Assembly (NCBI RefSeq): GCF_050920415.1
Contig: NZ_CP169309.1
DNA length: 64,000 bases
Reading direction: 5' to 3' (one strand)
Origin: Escherichia coli
GTDB lineage: Bacteria > Pseudomonadota > Gammaproteobacteria > Enterobacterales > Enterobacteriaceae
Positions within the stretch are counted from its first letter, which is position 1, and each line of letters begins with the position of its first letter. Below, one piece after another: positions 1,961 through 46,958 of the stretch. Under the pieces are notes generated by a model. That model worked only from the letters and a program-made list of their open reading frames with translations, was not told the origin of the DNA and did no database searches. Both the position numbers and the translations under genes were made by a program.

Positions 1961-3604
1961 ATGTTGAAGCGCCTACTAAAAAGACCCTCTTTGAATTTAC
2001 TCGCCTGGCTATTGCTGGCCGCTTTTTATATCGCTATCTGCCTGAATATTGCCTTTTTTAAACAGGTATTGCAGGCGTTGCCGCTGGACTCGCTGCATAA
2101 CGTACTTGTTTTCTTGTCGATGCCGGTCGTCGCTTTCAGCGTGATTAATATTGTCCTGACACTAAGCTCTTTCTTATGGCTTAATCGACCGCTGGCCTGC
2201 CTGTTTATTCTGGTTGGCGCGGCTGCACAATATTTCATAATGACTTACGGCATCGTCATCGACCGCTCGATGATTGCCAATATTATTGATACCACCCCAG
2301 CAGAAAGTTATGCGCTGATGACACCGCAAATGTTATTAACGCTGGGACTCAGCGGCGTACTTGCTGCGCTAATTGCCTGCTGGATTAAAATCAAACCTGC
2401 CACCTCGCATCTGCGCAGTGTTCTTTTCCGTGGTGCCAATATTCTGGTTTCTGTACTGCTGATTTTGCTGGTCGCCGCACTGTTTTATAAAGACTACGCC
2501 TCGTTGTTCCGCAACAACAAAGAGCTGGTGAAGTCCTTAAGCCCCTCTAACAGCATTGTTGCCAGCTGGTCATGGTACTCCCATCAGCGACTAGCAAATC
2601 TGCCACTGGTGCGAATTGGTGAAGACGCGCACCGCAACCCGTTAATGCAGAACGAGAAACGTAAAAATTTGACCATCCTGATTGTCGGCGAAACCTCGCG
2701 GGCGGAGAACTTCTCCCTCAACGGCTACCCGCGTGAAACGAACCCGCGGCTGGCGAAAGATAACGTGGTCTATTTCCCCAATACTGCGTCTTGCGGCACG
2801 GCAACGGCAGTTTCAGTACCGTGCATGTTCTCGGATATGCCGCGTGAGCATTACAAAGAAGAACTGGCACAGCACCAGGAAGGCGTGCTGGATATCATTC
2901 AGCGAGCGGGCATCAACGTGCTGTGGAATGACAACGATGGTGGCTGCAAAGGTGCCTGCGATCGCGTGCCTCACCAGAACGTCACTGCGCTGAACCTGCC
3001 TGGTCAGTGTATCAACGGCGAATGTTATGACGAAGTGCTTTTCCACGGGCTGGAAGAGTACATCACTAACCTGCAAGGTGATGGCGTAATTGTCTTACAC
3101 ACCATCGGCAGTCACGGCCCGACCTATTACAATCGCTATCCGCCACAGTTCAGGAAATTTACCCCTACCTGCGACACCAACGAGATCCAGACCTGTACCC
3201 AAGAGCAACTGGTAAACACTTACGACAATACGCTGGTCTACGTCGACTATATTGTTGATAAAGCAATTAATCTACTGAAAGAACATCAGGATAAATTTAC
3301 CACCAGCCTGGTTTATCTTTCTGACCACGGTGAATCGTTAGGTGAAAATGGCATCTATCTGCACGGTTTGCCTTATGCCATCGCCCCGGATAGCCAAAAA
3401 CAGGTGCCGATGCTGCTGTGGCTGTCTGAGGATTATCAAAAACGGTATCAGGTTGACCAAAGTTGCCTACAGAAACAGGCGCAAACGCAACACTATTCAC
3501 AAGACAATTTATTCTCCACGCTATTGGGATTAACTGGCGTTGAGACGAAGTATTACCAGGCTGCGGATGATATTCTGCAAACTTGCAGGAGAGTGAGTGA
3601 ATGA
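1961..3604 (+). CDS. eptA: Lipid A phosphoethanolamine transferase
   Basis: Track ORF 1916..3604; start placed at the internal ATG giving [14 protein letters not shown] (547 aa), matching EptA/PmrC as recalled; stop overlaps the basR start (ATGA). Confidence 0.88.
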
Positions 3605-4269
3605 AAATTCTGATTGTTGAAGACGATACGCTGTTATTGCAGGGATTGATTCTGGCGGCGCAAACCGAAGGCTACGCGTGCGATGGCGTGACAACCGCGC
3701 GGATGGCGGAACAAAGCCTTGAGGCAGGTCATTACAGCCTGGTGGTACTGGATTTAGGGTTACCCGACGAAGATGGGCTGCATTTTCTCGCCCGAATCCG
3801 GCAGAAAAAATACACCCTGCCGGTACTGATCCTCACCGCTCGCGATACGCTGACTGACAAAATCGCCGGACTGGATGTCGGGGCTGACGATTATCTGGTG
3901 AAGCCTTTTGCGCTGGAAGAGTTACACGCCCGTATCCGCGCCCTGCTACGACGCCATAATAATCAGGGCGAAAGTGAGTTGATTGTTGGCAATCTGACGC
4001 TGAATATGGGTCGCCGTCAGGTATGGATGGACGGTGAAGAGTTGATTCTGACGCCCAAAGAATATGCTCTGCTATCACGGTTAATGCTTAAAGCAGGTAG
4101 TCCGGTGCATCGGGAAATTCTCTACAACGACATCTATAACTGGGACAATGAACCCTCGACCAACACCCTGGAAGTGCATATCCACAATCTGCGCGACAAA
4201 GTGGGCAAAGCCCGTATCCGCACCGTGCGCGGCTTTGGCTATATGCTGGTCGCGAATGAGGAAAACTAA
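3601..4269 (+). CDS. basR: Two-component response regulator BasR (PmrA), OmpR family
   Basis: 222 aa; N-terminal receiver domain ([29 protein letters not shown]) and C-terminal winged helix; operon with eptA and basS. Confidence 0.93.
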
Positions 4270-4278
4270 TTGAATCTG

Positions 4279-5370
4279 ATGCGTTTTCTGCGCCGACCAA
4301 TATCGCTGCGCCAACGGCTGATATTGACCATTGGGGCCATTTTGTTGGTGTTTGAGTTGATCAGCGTCTTCTGGCTATGGCATGAAAGTACCGAGCAGAT
4401 TCAGCTGTTTGAGCAGGCGCTACGCGACAATCGTAACAACGATCGCCACATCATGCGTGAGATCCGCGAGGCGGTCGCCAGCCTGATTGTCCCTGGCGTC
4501 TTTATGGTCAGCCTGACGCTATTTATCTGCTATCAGGCGGTACGCCGCATCACCCGCCCGCTGGCGGAGCTGCAAAAAGAGCTGGAAGCGCGCACCGCCG
4601 ACAACTTAACGCCCATTGCCATTCACAGCGCCACCCTCGAAATCGAAGCGGTGGTTTCAGCGTTAAACGATCTGGTCAGTCGCCTGACCAACACGCTGGA
4701 TAACGAAAGGTTGTTTACCGCTGACGTCGCGCACGAACTGCGAACGCCACTGGCGGGGGTGCGTTTGCATCTGGAACTGCTGGCGAAAACGCATCACATT
4801 GATGTAGCACCGTTAGTGGCACGACTTGATCAGATGATGGAGAGTGTCTCCCAGCTACTGCAACTGGCGCGTGCCGGACAGTCATTTTCTTCCGGTAATT
4901 ATCAACATGTAAAACTGCTGGAAGATGTCATTCTCCCCTCGTATGACGAACTCAGTACCATGCTCGACCAGCGCCAGCAAACCCTGCTATTGCCAGAGAG
5001 CGCCGCCGACATCATCGTTCAGGGTGATGCAACCCTGCTGCGGATGTTATTGCGAAACCTGGTAGAAAATGCCCATCGTTACAGCCCGCAAGGCAGCAAC
5101 ATTATGATTAAGCTGCAAGACGATGGCGGAGCGGTCATGGCCGTTGAAGATGAAGGACCGGGTATTGATGAGAGTAAATGCGGGGAGTTGAGTAAAGCGT
5201 TTGTACGAATGGACAGCCGTTATGGCGGGATTGGTCTGGGGTTAAGTATTGTCAGCCGCATTACACAGTTGCATCACGGGCAGTTTTTCCTGCAAAACCG
5301 GCAAGAGACTTCCGGCACGCGGGCCTGGGTACGGCTGAAGAAAGATCAGTACGTGGCAAACCAGATATAA
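4279..5370 (+). CDS. basS: Sensor histidine kinase BasS (PmrB)
   Basis: 363 aa from the first ATG (track ORF begins at an upstream TTG); H-box ADVAHELRTPLAG and ATPase motifs; follows basR. Confidence 0.9.
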   Translation: MRFLRRPISLRQRLILTIGAILLVFELISVFWLWHESTEQIQLFEQALRDNRNNDRHIMREIREAVASLIVPGVFMVSLTLFICYQAVRRITRPLAELQKELEARTADNLTPIAIHSATLEIEAVVSALNDLVSRLTNTLDNERLFTADVAHELRTPLAGVRLHLELLAKTHHIDVAPLVARLDQMMESVSQLLQLARAGQSFSSGNYQHVKLLEDVILPSYDELSTMLDQRQQTLLLPESAADIIVQGDATLLRMLLRNLVENAHRYSPQGSNIMIKLQDDGGAVMAVEDEGPGIDESKCGELSKAFVRMDSRYGGIGLGLSIVSRITQLHHGQFFLQNRQETSGTRAWVRLKKDQYVANQI

Positions 5371-10819: not shown

Positions 10820-11155
10820 ATGTCATTACCACACTGCCCAAAATGCAACTCCGAATACACCTACGAAGATAACGGCATGTACATCTGCCCGGAATGTGCC
10901 TACGAATGGAACGACGCAGAACCTGCACAGGAAAGCGACGAGCTGATCGTTAAAGATGCTAACGGCAATCTGCTGGCTGACGGCGACAGCGTTACCATCA
11001 TTAAAGATCTGAAGGTGAAAGGTAGCTCTTCGATGCTGAAGATCGGTACCAAAGTGAAAAACATTCGCCTGGTTGAAGGCGACCACAACATCGATTGCAA
11101 AATCGACGGTTTTGGTCCGATGAAACTGAAATCTGAGTTTGTGAAAAAGAACTGA
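10820..11155 (+). CDS. yjdM: Zinc-ribbon protein YjdM (PhnA)
   Basis: 111 aa beginning [30 protein letters not shown] (two CxxC pairs); the longer track ORF (10673..) extends through an AT-rich leader and was trimmed. Confidence 0.88.
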
Positions 11156-11187
11156 TTGTATTGCTCAATGTAATATTGGCACATGAT

Positions 11188-11335
11188 CGGTAGGCCGGAT
11201 AAGGCGCTCGCGCCGCATCCGGCTACGGTGCCGACTGCCTGATGCGACGCTCGCGCGTCTTATCAGGCCTACAAATTCTCGCACCATCCGGCAACGGTGC
11301 CTAATGCGACGCTTACCGAGTCTTATCAGCCCCCG
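11188..11335. repeat. REP/BIME cluster (about 3 REP palindromes)
   Basis: Repeated taggccggataaggcg...cgccgcatccggc and gcctgatgcgacgc...gtcttatcaggcctac units between yjdM and yjdN. Confidence 0.75.
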
Positions 11336-11394
11336 CTCATCTGTATAATTTTCGAACTACACTTAACTGGCTTCTCTTAACTGAGGTCACCATC

Positions 11395-11838
11395 ATGCCG
11401 TTAAGTCCCTACCTCTCTTTTGCTGGTAACTGTTCCGATGCGATTGCCTATTATCAACGCACGTTGGGCGCGGAACTGCTTTATAAAATCAGCTTCGGCG
11501 AAATGCCGAAATCAGCGCAGGACAGCGCCGAGAACTGCCCTTCCGGTATGCAATTTCCCGATACCGCTATCGCCCATGCTAACGTGCGTATTGCCGGAAG
11601 CGATATCATGATGAGCGATGCCATACCGTCAGGAAAAGCCAGCTACTCCGGTTTTACACTGGTACTCGATTCGCAACAGGTCGAAGAAGGAAAACGCTGG
11701 TTTGATAACCTTGCTGCTAACGGAAAAATCGAAATGGCCTGGCAGGAAACTTTCTGGGCGCATGGCTTCGGCAAAGTCACCGATAAATTTGGCGTGCCGT
11801 GGATGATTAATGTCGTCAAACAACAACCAACGCACTAA
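11395..11838 (+). CDS. yjdN: Glyoxalase/bleomycin-resistance-fold protein YjdN (PhnB)
   Basis: 147 aa; recognised as E. coli YjdN/PhnB. Confidence 0.82.
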   Translation: MPLSPYLSFAGNCSDAIAYYQRTLGAELLYKISFGEMPKSAQDSAENCPSGMQFPDTAIAHANVRIAGSDIMMSDAIPSGKASYSGFTLVLDSQQVEEGKRWFDNLAANGKIEMAWQETFWAHGFGKVTDKFGVPWMINVVKQQPTH

Positions 11839-11893
11839 CCCGCCGGGAGGCCCGCCCTCCCGCACTGTCATCGAATTCCCGTTAACTCTTCAT

Positions 11894-11932
11894 CTGTTAG
11901 TCACTTTTAGTTAACAAAATCGTCACGATAAT
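11894..11932 (+). promoter_or_regulatory. PhoB-dependent phnC promoter (Pho box plus -10)
   Basis: Three phased 11-bp repeats ctgttagtcac / ttttagttaac / aaaatcgtcac followed by gataat, about 40 bp upstream of the phnC ATG; matches Pho-box architecture. Confidence 0.55.
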
Positions 11933-11970
11933 CCGCCACGATGGAGCCACTTTTTTAGGGAGGCTGCATC

Positions 11971-12759
11971 ATGCAAACGATTATCCGTGTCGAGAAGCTC
12001 GCCAAAACCTTCAATCAGCATCAGGCGCTGCATGCGGTTGATCTGAACATTCATCACGGTGAAATGGTGGCTCTGCTTGGGCCGTCCGGTTCCGGCAAAT
12101 CCACCCTTTTACGTCATTTAAGCGGTTTGATTACCGGCGATAAATCTGCCGGTAGCCATATCGAGCTGCTGGGCCGCACAGTCCAACGCGAAGGCCGCCT
12201 GGCCCGCGATATCCGCAAAAGCCGCGCCAACACCGGCTACATCTTCCAACAATTCAACCTGGTGAATCGCCTGAGCGTACTGGAGAACGTGCTGATTGGC
12301 GCGCTCGGCAGCACGCCATTCTGGCGCACCTGTTTTAGCTACTTCACCCGCGAGCAGAAACAGCGCGCGTTACAGGCGCTGACCCGCGTTGGCATGGTGC
12401 ACTTTGCCCATCAGCGCGTTTCCACCCTCTCCGGCGGACAGCAGCAGCGTGTGGCGATTGCCCGTGCGCTGATGCAGCAGGCGAAGGTGATTCTGGCCGA
12501 TGAACCCATCGCCTCGCTGGACCCGGAATCGGCGCGCATCGTGATGGACACCCTGCGCGACATTAACCAGAACGACGGCATTACCGTGGTCGTCACGCTG
12601 CATCAGGTGGATTACGCCCTGCGCTACTGCGAACGCATCGTCGCCCTGCGCCAGGGGCACGTCTTCTACGACGGCAGCAGCCAACAGTTTGATAACGAAC
12701 GTTTTGACCATCTCTACCGCAGCATTAACCGCGTCGAAGAGAACGCGAAAGCTGCCTGA
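11971..12759 (+). CDS. phnC: Phosphonate ABC transporter ATP-binding protein
   Basis: 262 aa; Walker [13 protein letters not shown] signature LSGGQQQR, Walker B ILADEP. Confidence 0.93.
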
Positions 12760-12783
12760 CATCCCCATCATTGAGGAAAACGA

Positions 12784-13800
12784 ATGAACGCTAAGATAAT
12801 TGCCTCGCTGGCCTTCACCAGCATGTTCAGCCTCAGCACCCTGTTCAGCCCGGCGCACGCCGAAGAGCAGGAAAAGGCGCTGAATTTCGGCATTATTTCA
12901 ACGGAATCACAGCAAAACCTGAAACCGCAATGGACGCCTTTCCTGCAAGATATGGAGAAGAAACTGGGCGTAAAGGTCAACGCCTTCTTTGCTCCGGACT
13001 ACGCGGGCATTATCCAGGGGATGCGCTTCAACAAAGTGGATATCGCCTGGTACGGCAACCTGTCGGCGATGGAAGCGGTGGATCGCGCCAACGGTCAGGT
13101 CTTCGCCCAGACGGTCGCGGCGGATGGATCGCCGGGTTACTGGAGCGTGTTGATCGTCAACAAAGATAGCCCGATCAACAACCTGAACGATCTGCTGGCC
13201 AAGCGTAAAGATCTCACCTTCGGCAATGGCGATCCTAACTCCACCTCTGGCTTCCTCGTCCCCGGCTACTACGTCTTCGCCAAAAACAATATCTCCGCCA
13301 GCGACTTCAAGCGCACCGTCAACGCCGGGCATGAAACCAACGCCCTCGCCGTCGCCAACAAGCAGGTGGATGTCGCCACCAACAACACTGAAAACCTCGA
13401 CAAGCTGAAAACCTCCGCGCCGGAGAAGCTGAAAGAACTGAAGGTGATCTGGAAATCGCCGCTGATCCCAGGCGATCCGATCGTCTGGCGCAAAAATCTG
13501 TCCGAAACCACCAAAGACAAGATCTACGACTTCTTTATGAACTACGGCAAAACGCCGGAAGAGAAAGCGGTGCTGGAACGCCTGGGCTGGGCGCCGTTCC
13601 GCGCCTCCAGCGACCTGCAACTGGTGCCAATTCGCCAGCTCGCACTGTTTAAAGAGATGCAAAGCGTGAAGGACAACAAAGGGCTGAACGAACAGGACAA
13701 GCTCGCGAAAACCACCGAGATACAGGCGCAACTGGATGACCTGGATCGCCTGAACAACGCGTTAAGCGCGATGAGTTCGGTGAGTAAAGCGGTGCAGTAA
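12784..13800 (+). CDS. phnD: Phosphonate ABC transporter periplasmic binding protein
   Basis: 338 aa with an N-terminal signal peptide (MNAKIIASLAFTSMFSLSTLFSPAHA). Confidence 0.92.
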   Translation: MNAKIIASLAFTSMFSLSTLFSPAHAEEQEKALNFGIISTESQQNLKPQWTPFLQDMEKKLGVKVNAFFAPDYAGIIQGMRFNKVDIAWYGNLSAMEAVDRANGQVFAQTVAADGSPGYWSVLIVNKDSPINNLNDLLAKRKDLTFGNGDPNSTSGFLVPGYYVFAKNNISASDFKRTVNAGHETNALAVANKQVDVATNNTENLDKLKTSAPEKLKELKVIWKSPLIPGDPIVWRKNLSETTKDKIYDFFMNYGKTPEEKAVLERLGWAPFRASSDLQLVPIRQLALFKEMQSVKDNKGLNEQDKLAKTTEIQAQLDDLDRLNNALSAMSSVSKAVQ

Positions 13801-13809
13801 TGTGCTCGA

Positions 13810-13912
13810 TCGGTCCCCTCTCCCTTGAGGGAGAGGGTTAGGGTGAGGGGGGAAATACGCACGCTGATGCCCTCACCCCGGCCCTCTCCCACAGGGAGAG
13901 GGAGAAAACATT
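13810..13912. repeat. GC-rich composite palindromic repeat (two ~40-bp imperfect palindromes), copy 1
   Basis: ggtcccctctcccttgagggagagggttagggtgagggg ... ccctcaccccggccctctcccacagggagagggagaaaac in the phnD-phnE spacer; closely related copy at 19165..19278. Confidence 0.7.
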
Positions 13913-13926
13913 AAACGGAGCCAAAC

Positions 13927-14706
13927 ATGCAAACCATCACCATCGCCCCACCCAAGCGCAGCTGGTTCTCGCTTCTGAGCTGGGCCATTGTTCTCGCCGT
14001 GCTGGTCGTCTCGTGGCAGGGCGCGGAAATGGCCCCGCTCACGCTGATTAAAGACGGCGGCAACATGGCGACGTTCGCCGCCGACTTCTTCCCGCCCGAT
14101 TTCAGCCAGTGGCAGGATTACCTCACCGAAATGGCCGTCACGCTGCAAATCGCCGTCTGGGGCACTGCGCTGGCAGTCGTTCTCTCCATCCCCTTCGGCC
14201 TGATGAGCGCCGAAAACCTGGTGCCGTGGTGGGTTTACCAGCCCGTTCGCCGCCTGATGGACGCCTGCCGCGCCATTAACGAGATGGTCTTCGCCATGCT
14301 GTTCGTGGTCGCCGTCGGTCTCGGTCCGTTCGCTGGCGTACTGGCGCTGTTTATCCACACCACCGGCGTGCTCTCCAAACTGCTTTCCGAAGCGGTGGAA
14401 GCGATTGAACCCGGCCCGGTGGAAGGCATTCGCGCCACCGGTGCCAATAAGCTCGAAGAGATCCTCTACGGCGTGCTGCCGCAGGTCATGCCGCTACTGA
14501 TTTCCTACTCACTCTATCGTTTCGAATCCAACGTGCGTTCCGCCACCGTTGTTGGCATGGTCGGCGCTGGCGGAATTGGCGTCACGCTGTGGGAAGCGAT
14601 TCGCGGTTTCCAGTTCCAGCAAACCTGCGCCCTGATGGTGCTGATTATCGTCACGGTCAGCCTGCTGGATTTCCTCTCTCAACGGTTGCGTAAGCACTTT
14701 ATCTGA
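13927..14706 (+). CDS. phnE: Phosphonate ABC transporter permease (intact reading frame)
   Basis: 259-aa uninterrupted ORF beginning [28 protein letters not shown] with permease topology; GGAG RBS 8 nt upstream. Confidence 0.88.
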
Positions 14707-14726
14707 TAAGCGAGGCATTGATATCT

Positions 14727-15452
14727 ATGCACTTGTCTACACCTCCGACCAGCTACCCAACACGCTATCAGGAGATAGCCGCAAAACTTGAGCAGGAGCT
14801 TCGTCAACACTACCGCTGCGGCGACTATCTTCCCGCCGAGCAGCAACTGGCAGCGCGCTTTGAGGTGAATCGCCACACCCTGCGCCGTGCCATCGACCAA
14901 CTGGTGGAAAAAGGCTGGGTACAGCGCCGTCAGGGCATCGGCGTACTGGTGCTGATGCGCCCGTTCGATTACCCGCTCAACGCCCAGGCGCGTTTTAGCC
15001 AGAACCTGCTGGATCAGGGTAGCCATCCCACCAGCGAAAAACTGCTGTCCGTGCTGCGCCCGGCCTCCGGTCACGTCGCTGACGCGCTGGGGATAACCGA
15101 GGGCGAGAACGTTATCCACCTGCGCACCCTGCGCCGGGTCAACGGCGTCGCGCTCTGTTTAATCGACCACTACTTTGCGGACCTCACTCTCTGGCCGACG
15201 CTGCAACGCTTCGACAGCGGCTCGCTGCACGATTTTTTGCACGAGCAAACGGGAATTGCGCTGCGCCGCAGCCAGACGCGGATCAGCGCCCGCCGCGCCC
15301 AGGCCAAAGAGTGCCAGCGTCTTGAAATTCCGAATATGTCGCCGCTGCTGTGCGTGCGCACCCTTAACCACCGTGACGGTGAAAGCAGCCCGGCGGAGTA
15401 CTCCGTCAGCCTGACGCGCGCCGACATGATTGAATTCACCATGGAGCACTGA
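14727..15452 (+). CDS. phnF: GntR-family repressor of the phn operon
   Basis: 241 aa from ATG (MHLSTPPTSYPTRYQEIAAKLEQ); N-terminal GntR HTH, UTRA-like C-terminus. Confidence 0.9.
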   Translation: MHLSTPPTSYPTRYQEIAAKLEQELRQHYRCGDYLPAEQQLAARFEVNRHTLRRAIDQLVEKGWVQRRQGIGVLVLMRPFDYPLNAQARFSQNLLDQGSHPTSEKLLSVLRPASGHVADALGITEGENVIHLRTLRRVNGVALCLIDHYFADLTLWPTLQRFDSGSLHDFLHEQTGIALRRSQTRISARRAQAKECQRLEIPNMSPLLCVRTLNHRDGESSPAEYSVSLTRADMIEFTMEH

Positions 15453-15905
15453 ATGCACGCAGATACCGCGACCCGCCAGCACTGGATGTCCGTGCTGGCG
15501 CACAGCCAACCGGCTGAACTGGCTAACCGCCTTAAAGCGCTAAACATCACCACCGACTATGACATTATCCGCGCCGCCGAAACCGGCCTGGTACAGATTC
15601 AGGCGCGAATGGGTGGCACCGGCGAACGCTTTTTTGCTGGCGACGCTACGCTCACCCGCGCCGCTGTACGCCTTACTGACGGCACGCTCGGCTACAGCTG
15701 GGTGCTGGGGCGCGACAAACAGCACGCCGAACGCTGCGCGCTGATTGACGCGCTGATGCAGCAATCTCGCCACTTTCAAAACTTATCAGAAACCCTTATT
15801 GCCCCGCTGGACGCTGACCGTATGGCACGCATTGCCGCACGCCAGGCCGAAGTGAACGCCAGTCGGGTCGACTTCTTTACGATGGTTCGCGGAGACAACG
15901 CATGA
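15453..15905 (+). CDS. phnG: C-P lyase core complex subunit PhnG
   Basis: 150 aa; position and sequence in the phnGHIJ block. Confidence 0.9.
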
Positions 15906-16486
15906 CCCTGGAAACCGCTTTTATGCTTCCCGTGCAGGATGCCCAGCACAGTTTTCGTCGCCTGTTAAAGGCAATGAGCGAGCCGGGCGTGATTGTCGCC
16001 CTGCATCAGCTCAAACGCGGCTGGCAGCCGCTGAATATCGCCACCACCAGCGTGCTGCTGACGCTGGCCGATAACGACACGCCGGTGTGGCTTTCCGCGC
16101 CATTAAGTAACGATATCGTCAGCCAGAGCCTGCGTTTTCATACCAACGCCCCGCTGGTCAATCAGCCGGAACAGGCGACCTTCGCAGTGACGGATGAGGC
16201 GATTGCCAGCGAGCAGCTCAACGCCCTTTCCACCGGCACCGCCGTTGCGCCGGAAGCCGGTGCGACGTTGATTTTACAGGTCACCAGCCTGAGCGGCGGA
16301 CGCATGCTGCGCCTCACCGGCGCGGGTATTGCCGAAGAACGGATGATCGCCCCGCAACTGCCGGAGTGCATTCTGCACGAACTCACCGAGCGCCCGCACC
16401 CGTTCCCGCTCGGCATCGACCTGATCCTGACCTGCGGCGAGCGCCTGCTGGCTATTCCGCGAACCACTCATGTGGAGGTGTGCTGA
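15902..16486 (+). CDS. phnH: C-P lyase core complex subunit PhnH
   Basis: 194 aa; overlaps the phnG stop (ATGA). Confidence 0.9.
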
Positions 16487-17550
16487 TGTACGTTGCCGTG
16501 AAAGGGGGCGAGAAGGCGATCGACGCCGCCCACGCCCTGCAAGAGAGCCGACGCCGGGTCGATACCGATTTGCCTGAACTGAGCGTCGCCCAGATTGAAC
16601 AGCAGCTTAATCTCGCGGTGGATCGCGTGATGACCGAAGGCGGCATTGCCGACCGCGAACTGGCCGCACTGGCGCTGAAACAGGCCAGTGGCGATAACGT
16701 TGAAGCAATTTTCCTGCTGCGCGCCTACCGCACGACGCTGGCAAAACTGGCGGTAAGCGAGCCGCTCGACACCACCGAGATGCGTCTCGAACGCCGTATC
16801 TCCGCCGTTTATAAAGACATTCCTGGCGGCCAGCTGCTTGGCCCGACCTACGACTACACCCATCGCCTGCTCGATTTCACCCTGCTGGCGAATGGCGAAG
16901 CGCCGACGCTGACCACCACCGACAGCGAGCAAGCCCCATCGCCGCACGTTTTCAGCCTGCTGGCGCGTCAGGGGCTGGCGAAGTTTGAAGAGGATAGCGG
17001 CGCACAGCCGGATGACATCACCCGTACACCGCCGGTTTACCCTTGCTCTCGCGCCTCCCGCCTGCAACAGCTCATGCGCGGCGACGAAGGCTACTTGCTG
17101 GCGCTGGCCTACTCCACCCAGCGTGGTTACGGACGCAATCACCCGTTCGCAGGCGAAATCCGCAGTGGCTATATCGACGTGTCTATTGTGCCGGAAGAGC
17201 TGGGATTTGCGGTGAACGTCGGTGAACTGCTGATGACCGAGTGTGAAATGGTTAACGGTTTTATCGACCAGCCGGATGAGCCGCCGCACTTCACGCGCGG
17301 CTACGGGCTGGTGTTTGGCATGAGCGAGCGCAAAGCGATGGCAATGGCGCTGGTTGACCGCGCTCTACAAGCCCCGGAGTACGGCGAGCACGCGACAGGC
17401 CCGGCGCAGGATGAAGAGTTCGTGCTGGCGCATGCCGACAACGTCGAAGCCGCAGGCTTTGTCTCGCACCTCAAACTCCCGCACTACGTCGATTTCCAGG
17501 CCGAGCTGGAGCTACTCAAACGTCTGCAACAGGAGCAGAACCATGGCTAA
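16486..17550 (+). CDS. phnI: C-P lyase subunit PhnI (ribosyl-triphosphate-forming nucleosidase)
   Basis: 354 aa from [13 protein letters not shown]; start overlaps the phnH stop by 1 nt (TGATG); the longer upstream track extension was rejected. Confidence 0.9.
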   Translation: MYVAVKGGEKAIDAAHALQESRRRVDTDLPELSVAQIEQQLNLAVDRVMTEGGIADRELAALALKQASGDNVEAIFLLRAYRTTLAKLAVSEPLDTTEMRLERRISAVYKDIPGGQLLGPTYDYTHRLLDFTLLANGEAPTLTTTDSEQAPSPHVFSLLARQGLAKFEEDSGAQPDDITRTPPVYPCSRASRLQQLMRGDEGYLLALAYSTQRGYGRNHPFAGEIRSGYIDVSIVPEELGFAVNVGELLMTECEMVNGFIDQPDEPPHFTRGYGLVFGMSERKAMAMALVDRALQAPEYGEHATGPAQDEEFVLAHADNVEAAGFVSHLKLPHYVDFQAELELLKRLQQEQNHG

Positions 17551-18388
17551 TCTGAGCGGCTACAACTTTGCGTACCTCGACGAGCAGACCAAACGTATGA
17601 TCCGCCGCGCCATCTTAAAAGCGGTGGCGATCCCCGGTTATCAGGTGCCGTTTGGCGGGCGCGAGATGCCGATGCCATACGGCTGGGGAACCGGCGGCAT
17701 ACAGCTTACCGCCAGTGTGATTGGCGAAAGCGACGTGTTGAAGGTGATTGACCAGGGCGCGGATGACACCACCAACGCCGTATCAATTCGCAACTTTTTC
17801 AAGCGCGTGACCGGGGTAAACACCACTGAACGTACGGATGATGCGACGCTTATCCAGACGCGCCACCGCATCCCCGAAACGCCGCTGACCGAAGATCAGA
17901 TCATTATCTTCCAGGTGCCGATCCCGGAACCGCTGCGCTTTATCGAGCCGCGCGAAACGGAGACCCGCACCATGCACGCGCTGGAGGAGTACGGCGTGAT
18001 GCAGGTGAAACTGTATGAAGATATCGCCCGCTTCGGTCATATCGCCACCACCTACGCCTATCCGGTGAAGGTGAACGGACGCTACGTCATGGACCCATCG
18101 CCGATCCCGAAATTTGATAACCCGAAAATGGACATGATGCCCGCCCTGCAACTGTTCGGCGCGGGGCGTGAGAAGCGTATTTATGCGGTGCCGCCGTTTA
18201 CCCGCGTGGAAAGCCTCGATTTCGACGATCATCCGTTCACCGTTCAGCAGTGGGATGAACCCTGCGCCATCTGCGGATCGACCCACAGCTATCTCGATGA
18301 AGTGGTGCTGGATGACGCCGGAAACCGCATGTTTGTCTGCTCCGATACCGATTATTGCCGCCAACAGAGCGAGGCGAGAAGCCAATGA
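17543..18388 (+). CDS. phnJ: C-P lyase radical-SAM subunit PhnJ
   Basis: 281 aa from MANLSGYNFAYLDEQTKRMIRRAILKAVAIPGYQVPFGGREMPMPYGWGTGG; C-terminal Cys cluster CAICGSTHSYLDE...CSDTDYC. Confidence 0.92.
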   Translation: MANLSGYNFAYLDEQTKRMIRRAILKAVAIPGYQVPFGGREMPMPYGWGTGGIQLTASVIGESDVLKVIDQGADDTTNAVSIRNFFKRVTGVNTTERTDDATLIQTRHRIPETPLTEDQIIIFQVPIPEPLRFIEPRETETRTMHALEEYGVMQVKLYEDIARFGHIATTYAYPVKVNGRYVMDPSPIPKFDNPKMDMMPALQLFGAGREKRIYAVPPFTRVESLDFDDHPFTVQQWDEPCAICGSTHSYLDEVVLDDAGNRMFVCSDTDYCRQQSEARSQ

Positions 18389-19143
18389 ATCAACCGTTAC
18401 TTTCGGTCAATAACCTGACCCACCTTTACGCGCCGGGCAAAGGCTTCAGCGATGTCTCTTTTGATTTATGGCCGGGGGAAGTGCTGGGCATTGTCGGGGA
18501 ATCCGGTTCCGGGAAGACCACGCTGCTGAAATCAATCTCCGCCCGTCTGACACCGCAACAGGGGGAGATTCACTATGAAAACCGTTCCCTCTATGGCATG
18601 AGCGAGGCCGACCGCCGTCGCCTGCTGCGCACCGAATGGGGCGTGGTGCATCAGCATCCGCTCGACGGCCTGCGCCGTCAGGTGTCAGCAGGCGGCAATA
18701 TCGGCGAACGGCTGATGGCGACCGGGGCGCGTCATTACGGCGATATTCGCGCCACCGCGCAGAAGTGGCTGGAGGAGGTGGAGATTCCCTCCAACCGTAT
18801 CGACGACCTGCCGACCACTTTTTCCGGCGGTATGCAGCAGCGTTTGCAGATTGCCCGCAACCTGGTGACGCATCCGAAGCTGGTGTTTATGGATGAACCG
18901 ACCGGCGGGCTGGATGTATCGGTACAGGCGCGCCTGCTCGATCTGCTGCGCGGTCTGGTGGTGGAGCTGAATCTGGCGGTGGTGATTGTCACCCATGATT
19001 TAGGCGTCGCCCGCCTGCTGGCGGACCGTTTGCTGGTGATGAAGCAGGGGCAGGTGGTGGAGAGTGGGTTAACCGACCGCGTACTCGACGACCCGCATCA
19101 TCCGTATACCCAGTTGCTGGTGTCATCGGTTTTGCAGAATTGA
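18385..19143 (+). CDS. phnK: C-P lyase associated ABC-type ATPase PhnK
   Basis: 252 aa from MNQPLLSVNNLTHLY; Walker A GESGSGKTT, signature FSGGMQQR. Confidence 0.92.
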   Translation: MNQPLLSVNNLTHLYAPGKGFSDVSFDLWPGEVLGIVGESGSGKTTLLKSISARLTPQQGEIHYENRSLYGMSEADRRRLLRTEWGVVHQHPLDGLRRQVSAGGNIGERLMATGARHYGDIRATAQKWLEEVEIPSNRIDDLPTTFSGGMQQRLQIARNLVTHPKLVFMDEPTGGLDVSVQARLLDLLRGLVVELNLAVVIVTHDLGVARLLADRLLVMKQGQVVESGLTDRVLDDPHHPYTQLLVSSVLQN

Positions 19144-19164
19144 GTTGCAACACTTTGCGCACTG

Positions 19165-19278
19165 ATCCCCTCACCCCGGCCCTCTCCCGGAGGGAGAGGG
19201 AGAAAACCGGCGCAATATTCAACACCGTGCACAAGCGGTCCCCTCGCCCCTTTGGGGAGAGGGTTAGGGTGAGGGGCA
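19165..19278. repeat. GC-rich composite palindromic repeat, copy 2 (inverted relative to copy 1)
   Basis: cccctcaccccggccctctcccggagggagagggagaaaacc ... ggtcccctcgcccctttggggagagggttagggtgagggg in the phnK-phnL spacer. Confidence 0.7.
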
Positions 19279-19320
19279 ATGTGCGCACCGCTCCCAAACA
19301 TGCGAACCACGAGGCGAAAA

Positions 19321-20001
19321 ATGATTAACGTACAAAACGTCAGTAAAACCTTCATCCTGCACCAGCAAAACGGCGTGCGCCTGCCCGTCTTACAACGCGC
19401 CTCGCTCACCGTCAACGCGGGCGAATGCGTGGTGCTCCACGGTCACTCCGGCAGCGGCAAATCAACTCTGCTACGCTCGCTGTACGCCAACTATCTGCCC
19501 GACGAAGGGCAAATCCAGATCAAACACGGTGACGAATGGGTAGACCTGGTCACCGCGCCAACGCGCAAAGTGGTGGAAATCCGCAAAACCACTGTCGGCT
19601 GGGTAAGCCAGTTTCTGCGCGTCATCCCGCGTATTTCGGCACTGGAAGTGGTGATGCAGCCGCTGCTCGATACCGGCGTTTCGCGTGATGCCTGCGCCGC
19701 TAAAGCCGCGCGTCTGCTCACCCGCCTGAACGTGCCGGAACGTCTGTGGCACCTGGCGCCATCGACCTTCTCCGGCGGCGAACAGCAGCGCGTCAACATC
19801 GCGCGCGGCTTTATCATCGATTACCCCATTCTGCTGCTCGACGAACCTACTGCCTCGCTGGACGCCAAAAACAGCGCCGCGGTGGTGGAACTGATCCGCG
19901 AAGCTAAAACCCGCGGCGCAGCCATCGTCGGCATCTTCCACGACGAAGCCGTACGCAATGACGTCGCCGACCGCCTGCACCCAATGGGAGCCTCTGCATG
20001 A
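19321..20001 (+). CDS. phnL: C-P lyase associated ABC-type ATPase PhnL
   Basis: 226 aa from [25 protein letters not shown]; Walker [10 protein letters not shown], signature FSGGEQQR. Confidence 0.9.
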
Positions 20002-21134
20002 TTATCAATAACGTCAAACTGGTGCTGGAAAACGAAGTGGTACACGGTTCGCTGGAGGTGCAGGACGGCGAAATTCGCGCCTTTGCCGAAAGCCAGAGCC
20101 GCCTGCCAGAAGCGATGGACGGCGAAGGTGGCTGGCTGCTGCCGGGACTGATTGAGCTGCATACCGATAATCTGGATAAATTCTTCACCCCGCGCCCGAA
20201 AGTGGACTGGCCCGCCCACTCGGCGATGAGCAGCCACGATGCGCTGATGGTGGCGAGCGGCATCACCACCGTGCTGGACGCCGTGGCGATTGGCGACGTG
20301 CGCGACGGCGGCGATCGGCTGGAGAATCTGGAAAAGATGATCAACGCCATCGAAGAGACGCAGAAACGCGGCGTCAACCGCGCCGAGCACCGCCTGCACC
20401 TGCGCTGCGAACTGCCGCATCACACTACGCTGCCGCTGTTTGAAAAACTGGTGCAGCGCGAGCCGGTCACGCTGGTGTCGCTAATGGACCACTCACCGGG
20501 CCAGCGCCAGTTCGCCAATCGCGAGAAGTATCGCGAATATTACCAGGGCAAATACTCGCTCACCGATGCGCAGATGCAGCAGTACGAAGAGGAACAACTG
20601 GCGCTTGCCGCACGCTGGTCGCAGCCGAATCGCGAAACCATCGCCGCAATGTGCCGCGCGCGACAAATTGCCCTCGCCAGCCACGATGACGCCACGCACG
20701 CGCACGTTGCCGAATCCCACCAGCTTGGCAGCGTAATCGCCGAATTTCCCACCACGTTCGAAGCGGCGGAAGCTTCGCGCAAGCATGGCATGAATGTATT
20801 GATGGGCGCGCCGAATATTGTGCGCGGCGGTTCGCACTCCGGCAACGTGGCGGCCAGTGAACTGGCACAGCTTGGTCTGCTGGATATCCTCTCTTCCGAC
20901 TACTACCCCGCCAGCCTGCTCGATGCGGCATTCCGCGTCGCCGATGACGAGAGCAACCGCTTTACGCTGCCGCAGGCGGTGAAGCTGGTGACTAAAAATC
21001 CGGCGCAGGCGCTTAATCTTCAGGATCGCGGGGTGATTGGCGAGGGCAAACGCGCCGACCTGGTGCTGGCGCATCGCAAGGGCAACCACATTCATATCGA
21101 TCACGTCTGGCGTCAGGGTAAAAGGGTGTTCTGA
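19998..21134 (+). CDS. phnM: Amidohydrolase-family PhnM (ribosyl-triphosphate diphosphohydrolase)
   Basis: 378 aa; overlaps the phnL stop (ATGA). Confidence 0.9.
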
Positions 21135-21691
21135 TGACGGGAAAACTGATTTGGTTAATGGGGGCCTCTGGCTCCGGAAAAGACAGTCTGTTGACGGAAC
21201 TCCGCCAGCGGGAACAAACTCAGCTACTGGTAGCGCATCGCTACATCACGCGCGCCGCCAGCGCCGGAAGTGAAAACCATATCGCCCTGAGCGAGCAGGA
21301 GTTTTTTACCCGCGCGGGGCAGAACCTTCTGGCCTTAAGCTGGCACGCCAACGGCCTGTATTATGGCATCGGCGTCGAGATTGACCTCTGGCTGCACGCT
21401 GGATTTGACGTGGTGGTCAACGGCTCACGCGCCCATCTACCGCAGGCGCGGGCGCGCTATCAATCGGCGCTGCTGCCCGTTTGTTTACAGGTTTCGCCAG
21501 AGATCCTGCGCCAGCGCCTGGAAAACCGTGGTCGTGAAAATGCCAGTGAAATTAACGCCCGGCTGGCGCGCGCTGCCCGCTATACTCCTCAGGATTGTCT
21601 TACGCTCAATAATGACGGCAGCCTGCGCCAGTCGGTCGACAAGCTGCTGACGCTGATTGATCTGAAGGAGAAACACCATGCCTGCTTGTGA
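21134..21691 (+). CDS. phnN: Ribose 1,5-bisphosphate phosphokinase PhnN
   Basis: 185 aa; P-loop [12 protein letters not shown]; guanylate-kinase-like. Confidence 0.9.
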
Positions 21692-22112
21692 GCTTCGCCC
21701 GGCTACGCAGTACGACACCGACGCAGTTTACGCGCTGATTTGTGAGCTAAAACAGGCGGAGTTTGACCACCACGCGTTTCGCGTGGGCTTTAACGCCAAT
21801 CTGCGCGACCCGAACATGCGCTACCATCTGGCGCTGCTGGATGGCGAAGTTGTCGGCATGATCGGCCTGCATTTGCAGTTTCATCTGCATCATGTCAACT
21901 GGATCGGCGAAATTCAGGAACTGGTGGTGATGCCGCAGGCGCGCGGTCTGAACGTCGGCAGTAAATTACTGGCATGGGCCGAAGAAGAAGCCCGCCAGGC
22001 CGGGGCCGAAATGACCGAGCTTTCCACCAACGTCAAGCGCCACGACGCGCACCGTTTCTATCTGCGCGAAGGCTACGAGCAGAGCCACTTCCGCTTCACC
22101 AAGGCGCTGTAA
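21678..22112 (+). CDS. phnO: Aminoalkylphosphonate N-acetyltransferase PhnO (GNAT)
   Basis: 144 aa; GNAT-like acetyl-CoA region; overlaps phnN by 14 nt. Confidence 0.88.
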
Positions 22113-22113
22113 C

Positions 22114-22872
22114 ATGAGCCTGACCCTCACACTTACTGGCACTGGCGGCGCACAGGGTGTTCCCGCATGGGGCTGTGAGTGCGCGGCCTGCGCCAGAGCG
22201 CGGCGCTCACCGCAGTATCGCCGCCAGCCATGCAGCGGCGTCGTGAAGTTTAACGACGCGATCACCCTGATCGACGCCGGGCTGCACGATCTCGCCGATC
22301 GCTGGTCGCCCGGATCGTTCCAGCAGTTTTTGCTGACGCACTACCATATGGATCACGTGCAGGGGCTGTTTCCGCTGCGCTGGGGCGTGGGCGATTCGAT
22401 CCCGGTCTACGGCCCGCCGGATGAACAGGGCTGCGACGATCTGTTTAAACATCCGGGCCTGCTTGATTTCAGCCACACGGTGGAGCCATTTGTGGTGTTT
22501 GATTTGCAGGGATTGCAGGTGACGCCGCTACCGCTTAACCATTCGAAACTCACTTTCGGCTATTTACTGGAAACGGCGCACAATCGGGTGGCGTGGCTGT
22601 CTGACACCGCGGGCCTGCCAGAAAACACGCTGAAATTTTTACTCAATAATCATCCGCAGGTGATGGTGATTGATTGCAGCCATCCGCCGCGCGAGGATGT
22701 GCCGCGTAATCACTGCGATTTAAACACCGTGCTGGCGCTGAATGAGATTATCCGTTCACCGCGCGTGATTCTGACGCACATCAGCCACCAGTTTGATGCG
22801 TGGCTGATGGAAAATACGCTGCCATCGGGGGTTGAGGCGGGGTTTGATGGGATGGAGATTGGGGTGGAGTGA
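22114..22872 (+). CDS. phnP: Phosphoribosyl cyclic phosphodiesterase PhnP (metallo-beta-lactamase fold)
   Basis: 252 aa; HxHxDH motif ([11 protein letters not shown]). Confidence 0.9.
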
Positions 22873-22906
22873 TGGGTGAGGGGCGATGCCTGCTCTAGAC
22901 TCAACA

Positions 22907-23236
22907 TCACCGCCCATACTCATCTTCCATTCTCCGCTCTTCATCTTCTAGCTGCCGACGCTCCTGATCCAGCTGGCGCTGGCGATCGTCCAGCTGCTTG
23001 CGGCGATCTTCAAACTGGCGGCGGCGATCGTCATATTGTCTGCGCCGATCGTCGTTCACTTCACGCTGCCAGCCGTCGTCGCGCGAATCTTCATAGTCTC
23101 GCCCACGGTCAGGGTTATAAGCATCGTTAATCGCCTGCTGAATATTGCCAATGGTGTCGTCGATAATATCGGCCTGGGCCGGAACGGTGGACAGCGTGAG
23201 CAGGGTGAATAAAATAAATAGCGGAAAACGTTTCAT
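22907..23236 (-). CDS. yjdP: Small secreted protein YjdP with a highly charged D/E/R/Q repeat region
   Basis: 109 aa; signal peptide MKRFPLFILFTLLTLSTVPAQA followed by DDRRRQYDDRRRQFEDRRKQLDDRQRQLDQERRQLEDEERR. Confidence 0.75.
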   Translation of the reverse strand: MKRFPLFILFTLLTLSTVPAQADIIDDTIGNIQQAINDAYNPDRGRDYEDSRDDGWQREVNDDRRRQYDDRRRQFEDRRKQLDDRQRQLDQERRQLEDEERRMEDEYGR

Positions 23237-23304
23237 TAGCCAACCTCAAAAAGAAACTCTATCCACATTAGTCATTACTCATCCATGCAAGTAGTGGATG
23301 AATC

Positions 23305-23622
23305 TCAATTTTTCCGCTGCTCTATTGCCGTAATCGCCTCCACGCGTTGTTGATGACGACCGCCTTCGTACTGCGCGCCCAGCCACGCATCCACAATCAT
23401 TTTTGCCAGTTCGAGGCCAACCACTCGTGAACCAAAAGCCAGTGCAACTTCACTGGCGTAATGCGGATAATCAGTGCGCTCTGACGACCTGGTTTCTTTA
23501 TCAATCCCCTCACTCATTGACTATGAATAAAAGGCTGGCACAGCAACGCAGAATCCTGCGGTGCCAGCGACATGACCGCCCATTGCTCCGGTACGTTTTT
23601 TAATAAGAAACACCGGTTGCAT
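23305..23622 (-). pseudogene. rpiB: Remnant of ribose-5-phosphate isomerase B (internally deleted, 5' region degenerate)
   Basis: 70-aa ORF MSEGIDKETRSSERTDYPHYASEVALAFGSRVVGLELAKMIVDAWLGAQYEGGRHQQRVEAITAIEQRKN matches the RpiB N-proximal segment (WSSERTDYPHYASQVALA) and C-terminus as recalled, but lacks the central part with the catalytic Cys; an in-frame stop lies 2 codons upstream. Confidence 0.55.
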
Positions 23623-46811: not shown

Positions 46812-46958
46812 AATACTCTTCCTCTCCAATATGCATCATCTTTTCCCATAATATTAAACAAATAAACTCATTAAAAAAATGAGCGATTTTTGACAGTCGT
46901 AGAAAATGATAATGCAGAGAATATGCCTTTTCTTTCTTGTTAATTATAAGGATATTTT

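Follow-up and report, generated by a model that had tools for sequence, protein, structure and literature searches.

An uninterrupted phnE reading frame in an Escherichia coli chromosome and the spread of the cryptic K-12-type allele

Introduction

The phnE gene of E. coli K-12 has been known since 1991 to carry a frameshift. The locus analyzed here raises the question of whether its own phnE is the same cryptic allele or one that makes a permease, and how much an open frame says about the ability of the strain to use phosphonates. The gene lies within a 64,000-nucleotide stretch of E. coli DNA, called the window throughout. An original prediction held that phnE is intact in this strain, that the strain should use phosphonates without prior mutation (Phn+), and, by implication, that K-12 alone is odd at this site. 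Our analysis places the intact gene in its proper context: an open phnE frame is the normal state of E. coli, a finding already known from publications on the frameshift and on how prevalent the intact gene is, and beyond correct annotation it matters little. The distribution of the frameshifted allele and a private substitution in phnI bear on the remaining parts of the question.

The window as an E. coli chromosomal segment

Over its first 50 kb, the window has two nucleotide differences from E. coli MFDS1022581 (NZ_CP169399.1), a food isolate from Korea for which RefSeq annotates the gene order adiY-adiC-eptA-basRS-proP ... yjdM-yjdN-phnCDEFGHIJKLMNOP-yjdP ... yjcS-mdtNOP-fdhF-nrf-acs. This near identity and the annotated order identify the window as an ordinary E. 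coli chromosomal segment. At the nucleotide level the window phnE is 94–97% identical to most E. coli genomes, and an origin in a divergent Escherichia species was considered and rejected on two grounds, the two SNPs per 50 kb that separate the window from E. coli and the presence of its PhnE protein in other E. coli strains.

Two features outside the phn genes were also observed. At 23305-23622 and on to 23875, rpiB survives only as a pseudogene remnant (with an internal stop in the RefSeq annotation of MFDS1022581); the als/rpiR genes, which follow rpiB in K-12, are absent, and yjcS comes next. Between yjdM and yjdN, positions 11193-11269 match the Rfam family naRNA4 (CssrE, a nucleoid-associated REP-derived RNA) with 99.2 bits against a gathering score of 59.5; since the REP element is palindromic, the model also scores on the opposite strand.

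The phnE reading frame and its product

The features that define the gene and its product are as follows.

13927..14706, plus strand: phnE, a 259-codon ORF with an ATG start and a TGA stop, encoding the PhnE permease of the PhnCDE phosphonate/phosphate ABC importer
13917..13920, plus strand: Shine-Dalgarno sequence GGAG, 6 nt 5' of the phnE ATG, found by direct reading of the sequence
14422..14481, plus strand: EAA loop of PhnE, residues 166-185, located in the translation and lying 3' of the K-12 frameshift site

The ORF listing gives phnE as a single uninterrupted frame whose 259 aa extend through the EAA loop and on through the membrane segments at the C-terminus. It holds no upstream in-frame start, as no other start codon separates the ATG from the stop that precedes it. 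The single 259-codon ORF and good ribosome-binding site of the original prediction were thus both borne out. The sequence GGAGCCAAAC-ATG is kept in K-12 and in most sampled strains, and the sequence farther 5' is not. The MG1655 annotation (3444-4282 of the compared segment) starts 17 codons farther upstream, from an ATG that lies within a REP element, whereas the window at 13876-13926 is unrelated to this REP-borne extension and lacks an in-frame start. Because the extension has no counterpart in the window, the shared GGAG-N6-ATG, which yields the 259-aa protein called by PGAP, is likely the true start.

Membership of the product in the PhnE family is clear. The NCBIfam model TIGR01097 ('phosphonate ABC transporter, permease protein PhnE') recognizes the translation with an E-value of 4.5e-93 and 311.3 bits, above the curated cut-off of 216.7 bits for this equivalog model, and residues 16-258 correspond to profile positions 8-251 of 252. 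This match, together with the flanking phnC, phnD, and phnF genes, argues that 13927-14706 is not a chance ORF. Hydrophobic segments peak at residues 12-30, 75-93, 125-143, and 233-251. Searching the PDB by sequence brought up no PhnE structure. The nearest solved relatives in sequence are the structures of MetI, the permease of the methionine ABC importer (PDB 3DHW, 6CVL), which resembles PhnE in its type I ABC importer permease core over PhnE residues 125-254 (E 6e-06) but is a distant relative belonging to a system with another substrate.

The division of labor among PhnC, PhnD, and PhnE is established knowledge of ABC importers, and the EAA loop of an importer permease is its contact with the ATPase, here PhnC. 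In the window strain, PhnD would bind the phosphonate, a PhnE dimer would form the membrane pore, and the EAA loop would couple PhnE to the PhnC ATPase, the three proteins together making up a type I ABC importer for phosphonates, and also for phosphate, that would be induced by phosphate starvation.

The same gene is found elsewhere in the species. In MFDS1022581 the 780-bp phnE lies at the same coordinates, is identical in sequence, and is annotated by RefSeq as phnE, WP_001193496.1. This accession is also assigned in strains EECO1006 and STLEFF_47, whose translations are identical to the window PhnE, and the PhnE proteins of other natural E. coli (WP_001193500.1 and similar) differ from it by 1–3 aa in the sampled strains. 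Among 5426 complete E. coli genomes, phnE is present at a coverage of at least 80% in 5391. Nucleotide identity of at least 99% to the window gene was reached by only one of 5396 matching records, which come from 5394 of these genomes.

The 8-bp repeat and comparison with K-12

The K-12 lesion named in the original prediction is real and lies at the expected place, a short tandem repeat that is present in the window in a two-unit form.

14332..14347, plus strand: two-unit 8-bp slippage repeat GCTGGCGT ACTGGCGC, codons 136-141 (..FAGVLAL..), located by alignment to MG1655

The repeat site was extracted and compared across 11 strains. MG1655 (NC_000913.3) reads ..CCGTTC GCTGGCGT GCTGGCGT GCTGGCGC TGTTT.., with three units, and the window reads ..CCGTTC GCTGGCGT ACTGGCGC TGTTT.. 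in the same flanks, with two. The additional GCTGGCGT unit throws the MG1655 gene out of frame after about residue 141 and ends its product at 189 aa, and RefSeq flags the gene as a pseudogene (b4583, 'phnE1'). The K-12 frameshift thus costs the protein its EAA loop and C-terminal hydrophobic segment. The alignment to K-12 proposed with the original prediction therefore separates the two sequences at the 8-bp repeat itself: because the extra unit is absent, the window is not K-12-like there, and it is not a member of the cryptic K-12-type (EcoK) class of phnE, which has three tandem units and a frameshift. In other respects the two loci are alike, sharing the same place in the phnCDEFGHIJKLMNOP operon and the conserved Shine-Dalgarno sequence and ATG.

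Apart from the repeat, the two genes encode nearly the same protein. After removal of one unit in silico, the K-12 gene encodes a protein that differs from the window PhnE only by the conservative change V21I, and the corresponding genes differ at 36 of 780 nucleotides (~95% identity). Since just one of these differences alters the protein, the other 35 must be synonymous, a sign of strong purifying selection.

Revertants of K-12 to phnE+ by loss of 8 bp were reportedly described by Makino in 1991, by Iqbal in 2004, and by Guillemet and Moreau in 2012. In K-12, deletion of 8 bp (5'-GCTGGCGT, ORF position 407-414) activates PhnCDE and restores transport, and the transport of both phosphonate and phosphate by such revertants has been demonstrated by experiment (PMC6469041). 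Like the window allele, the phnE of these revertants (see also Stasi et al., 2019) has a two-unit repeat and an open frame of 259 aa; the window allele differs in being natural instead of selected, in its other synonymous background, and in a GTA variant of the repeat. In K-12 the third unit takes away the loop that couples to PhnC together with a portion of the pore, so that the system is silent until slippage deletes a unit; the two units in the window leave the frame open past the EAA loop to the final membrane segments, and a full-length permease would be made. The functional permease of the original prediction is well supported by the sequence comparison, with V21I as the sole difference from frame-restored K-12 and with the EAA loop and C-terminal segments intact. 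We consider it very probable that the window phnE is a wild-type in-frame allele that makes the permease, and from this allele we infer expression and transport.

The GTA variant is a synonymous change, GTG>GTA (Val), at position 14340 in codon 139, where MG1655 has GTG; through it, the second unit of the window begins with A instead of G. The two window units accordingly share 6/8 bases, compared with 7/8 in the common GTG form, GCTGGCGT GCTGGCGC. CTGGCG is still repeated at period 8.

Distribution of repeat alleles in E. coli

The repeat alleles were counted in the 5426 complete E. coli genomes with exact-word probes, each of which seeds on one repeat configuration only. The counts are of genomes and not of independent events.

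Three units, K-12 type: about 1010 genomes (~19%)
Two units, common GTG form: 2259 genomes
Two units, GTA form, as in the window: 408 genomes, with the same 31-nt repeat site
Three-unit derivative of the GTA form: 0 genomes
Repeat site without a probe seed, owing to nearby SNPs: about 1714 genomes

One genome sampled from those without a seed carries CTG>CTA beside the repeat and has an intact two-unit phnE.

The census corrects the implication that K-12 alone is odd, as the same frameshifted allele is carried by roughly one in five complete genomes, natural isolates included. About a third of an evenly spaced sample of three-unit genomes were obvious K-12 or laboratory strains, and the remainder came from humans, pigs, poultry (chickens), wastewater, and one kangaroo. 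Seven natural three-unit isolates were fetched, each of which has its phnE labeled 'frameshifted' by RefSeq; after removal of one unit, their alleles lie 0–2 nt from K-12 and make up one haplotype. Recurrent independent origin of the OFF allele in nature was rejected on this evidence. Judged from these sequences, the cryptic allele is a single K-12-like haplotype that owes its wide distribution to descent; it is not restricted to K-12, and no recurrence is visible. Far from a laboratory curiosity, this one haplotype, the 'K-12' cryptic allele, accounts for roughly a fifth of complete genomes and is found in many natural isolates.

The census also bears on whether the open frame in the window could be an artefact of assembly, in which a collapsed tandem repeat hides a third unit. 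Short tandem repeats can be miscalled, and the window does differ from its closest complete genome at two other positions. However, an independent complete genome carries the identical 780-bp phnE, the 31-nt site recurs in all 408 genomes of the GTA form, sequencing reads far exceed an 8-bp unit in length, and the synonymous character of 35 of the 36 differences from K-12 is that of a live gene. Such an artefact is extremely improbable.

Possible switching at the repeat

A second alternative concerns the stability of the allele. The window phnE could be the ON state of a phase-variable contingency switch that is turned OFF by gain of 8 bp at appreciable frequency, as has been reported for derivatives of K-12. 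The 8-bp deletion in K-12 arises through high-frequency replication slippage between direct repeats (PMC4759930; PMC6469041). Reversible phase variation is attributed to Iqbal et al. (2004) in one of these reports (PMC6469041), and the period-8 CTGGCG repeat that persists in the window would provide a substrate for it. The distribution of alleles speaks against frequent switching. No three-unit GTA derivative occurs among the 5426 genomes, although 408 of them have the two-unit form, and the units in the window match each other less well than those of the GTG form do. Furthermore, the eight sequenced three-unit alleles (K-12 and the seven natural ones) are one haplotype, 0–2 nt apart, which points to inheritance and not to frequent switching in nature. 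We therefore regard a switch of this kind as unlikely.

The change from GTG to GTA lowers the identity of the units from 7/8 to 6/8, which may make both gain and loss of a unit by slippage less frequent. That no three-unit GTA alleles exist among these genomes fits such a reduction, and shared ancestry could explain it equally well. We can also speculate, with considerable doubt, that phnE has become locked ON in the GTA lineage with loss of its contingency role, the counts being 0 three-unit to 408 two-unit genomes for GTA and about 1010 to at least 2259 for GTG, and that the replacement of REP by BoxC pairs described below might retune the expression of phnE and phnL.

The phn operon and the Phn phenotype

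The other parts of the operon in the window are listed here.

11839..11970, plus strand: yjdN-phnC spacer, in which a Pho-regulated promoter of phnC would be expected
11971..12759, plus strand: phnC, ATP-binding subunit (NF007438, 606 bits; 98.5% identity with K-12 across 262/262 aa)
12784..13800, plus strand: phnD, periplasmic phosphonate-binding protein (TIGR03431, 376 bits; 99.1% identity with K-12 across 338/338 aa)
14727..22872, plus strand: phnFGHIJKLMNOP, encoding the regulator, the C-P lyase core, and accessory enzymes, full length by tblastn and by the RefSeq annotation of MFDS1022581

The phnCDEFGHIJKLMNOP operon is complete, with all 14 genes at full length and phnE beside the genes for its ATPase and binding protein. 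The K-12 proteins PhnC, PhnD, and PhnF to PhnP align without gaps in tblastn, in the same order and at 94–100% identity, over their full lengths except for PhnP (251/252 aa). The product of phnF, which lies directly downstream of phnE, matches NF007486 with 515 bits.

The yjdN-phnC spacer is the presumed site of the PhoB-dependent phnC promoter, reportedly described by Makino and colleagues in 1991. A scan with the Pho-box consensus CTGTCATAWAWCTGTCAY, which is generic, found no site in this spacer with up to 3 mismatches; its sole match, at 46879, is at chance level and was rejected. Because the scan was empty upstream of phnC, we relied instead on conservation of the region, of which 146 nt align with K-12 at 97% identity. 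Three SNPs close by made a 40-nt probe for the variant upstream of phnC uninformative. Promoter and terminator scans were near the expectation from shuffled sequence (promoter-like matches, 5 against 5.1; terminator-like matches, 20 against 13.1, sd 4.5), and a terminator-like match at 14331-14346 was discarded, being merely the 8-bp phnE repeat read as a hairpin.

The PhnCDE importer of the strain should be active under phosphate starvation, a prediction that bears on the use of phosphonates, glyphosate, and aminomethylphosphonate and on phosphate scavenging.

One of the two differences from MFDS1022581 lies in phnI, where GGC>GTC at position 16559 changes codon 25 and produces PhnI G25V; the other is synonymous and lies in phnM. 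A 35-nt probe centered on the phnI change had no match in the 5426 complete E. coli genomes. Glycine is present at position 25 in all 113 enterobacterial cluster representatives that have a matchable N-terminus, in which residues 20-23 vary. Among 107 representatives of 50%-identity PhnI clusters, Gly25 is present in all 65 that are ungapped there, down to about 35–40% identity, and the remaining 42 have a gap at column 25, with no other residue in any of them. PhnI is part of the essential C-P lyase core complex; its N-terminus moves by more than 30 Å during ATP-driven opening of the core, and its N-terminal amino group then completes a Zn site in the catalytic cycle (Amstrup et al., 2023; PMC9947105).

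These observations raise the possibility that phnE and the transporter work and the strain is nevertheless Phn- or poorly Phn+, with G25V crippling the C-P lyase core. The absence of the substitution from all complete genomes, the glycine in every aligned homologue, and the movement and metal binding of the PhnI N-terminus favor such an effect. Against it, the gaps at column 25 indicate a loop that tolerates variation in length, and G25V could itself be a sequencing error in the source assembly. We consider a crippled core a real possibility, if somewhat improbable. Phn+ can thus not be read from phnE alone, because the private G25V falls at a glycine without substitution in aligned homologues, and an open phnE frame is by itself no predictor of phenotype. 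The expectation that the strain is Phn+ without prior mutation consequently stands in part: the 14 full-length genes and the 97% identity upstream of phnC make it likely, and PhnI G25V leaves it short of assured. A functional permease is very likely as judged by sequence, and for the full Phn+ phenotype of the strain we lean modestly toward the affirmative.

BoxC pairs in the intra-operon spacers

The intergenic DNA on the 5' side of phnE differs from that of K-12. It contains the following elements.

13801..13926, plus strand: phnD-phnE spacer, 126 bp, with an inverted pair of BoxC/PIT/TMECO intrastrand-triplex motifs
13816-13850, plus strand: type A triplex motif, CCCTCTCCCTTGAGGGAGAGGGTTAGGGTGAGGGG
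13869-13902, minus strand: type B triplex motif, whose reverse complement reads CCCTCTCCCTGTGGGAGAGGGCCGGGGTGAGGGC

A triplex motif of this kind consists of a C-rich 9-mer, a loop of 3–6 nt, GGGNGAGGG, a 3-nt loop (TTA in type A, CCG in type B), and a second GGGNGAGGG, and it often occurs as an inverted pair of type A and type B. The spacer element conforms to this definition. Its type B motif is identical to TMECO no. 1 of MG1655, and its type A motif differs from TMECO no. 2 at the last base only (PMC4666352, Table 1); in MG1655 the hrpB-mrcB interval contains both of these (Holder et al., 2015; PMC4666352). The phnD-phnE spacer of K-12, in contrast, is 105 bp long, holds two REP sequences, and has no alignment with that of the window. 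K-12 and most strains have the REP pair at this site, and about 348 of 5426 genomes have the BoxC pair. EECO1006 has a collapsed form of 60 bp in which one hairpin is kept, which fits the 'palindrome effect' of Holder et al. (PMC4666352).

As RNA, the spacer has a predicted folding energy of -70.2 kcal/mol (z -5.8 against shuffles). The very stable BoxC palindrome lies 14 nt upstream of the phnE Shine-Dalgarno sequence, which the predicted outer helix touches, and the palindrome may affect phnE translation or mRNA stability. No T-run follows the palindrome, and PIT/BoxC elements reportedly act neither as promoters nor as terminators (PMC4666352), so read-through across the spacer is expected. 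Matches of Rfam microRNA models to the palindrome were sub-threshold and were rejected as artefacts; the Rfam scan of 11000-23500 yielded no credible RNA family for phnE or its surroundings.

The phnK-phnL spacer (window 19144-19320), where K-12 again has REP, contains another inverted pair of BoxC/TMECO motifs.

19167-19200, minus strand: type B motif of the phnK-phnL spacer
19241-19276, plus strand: type A-mm motif of the phnK-phnL spacer

With BoxC in both intra-operon spacers where K-12 has REP, the repeat family has been swapped in this lineage.
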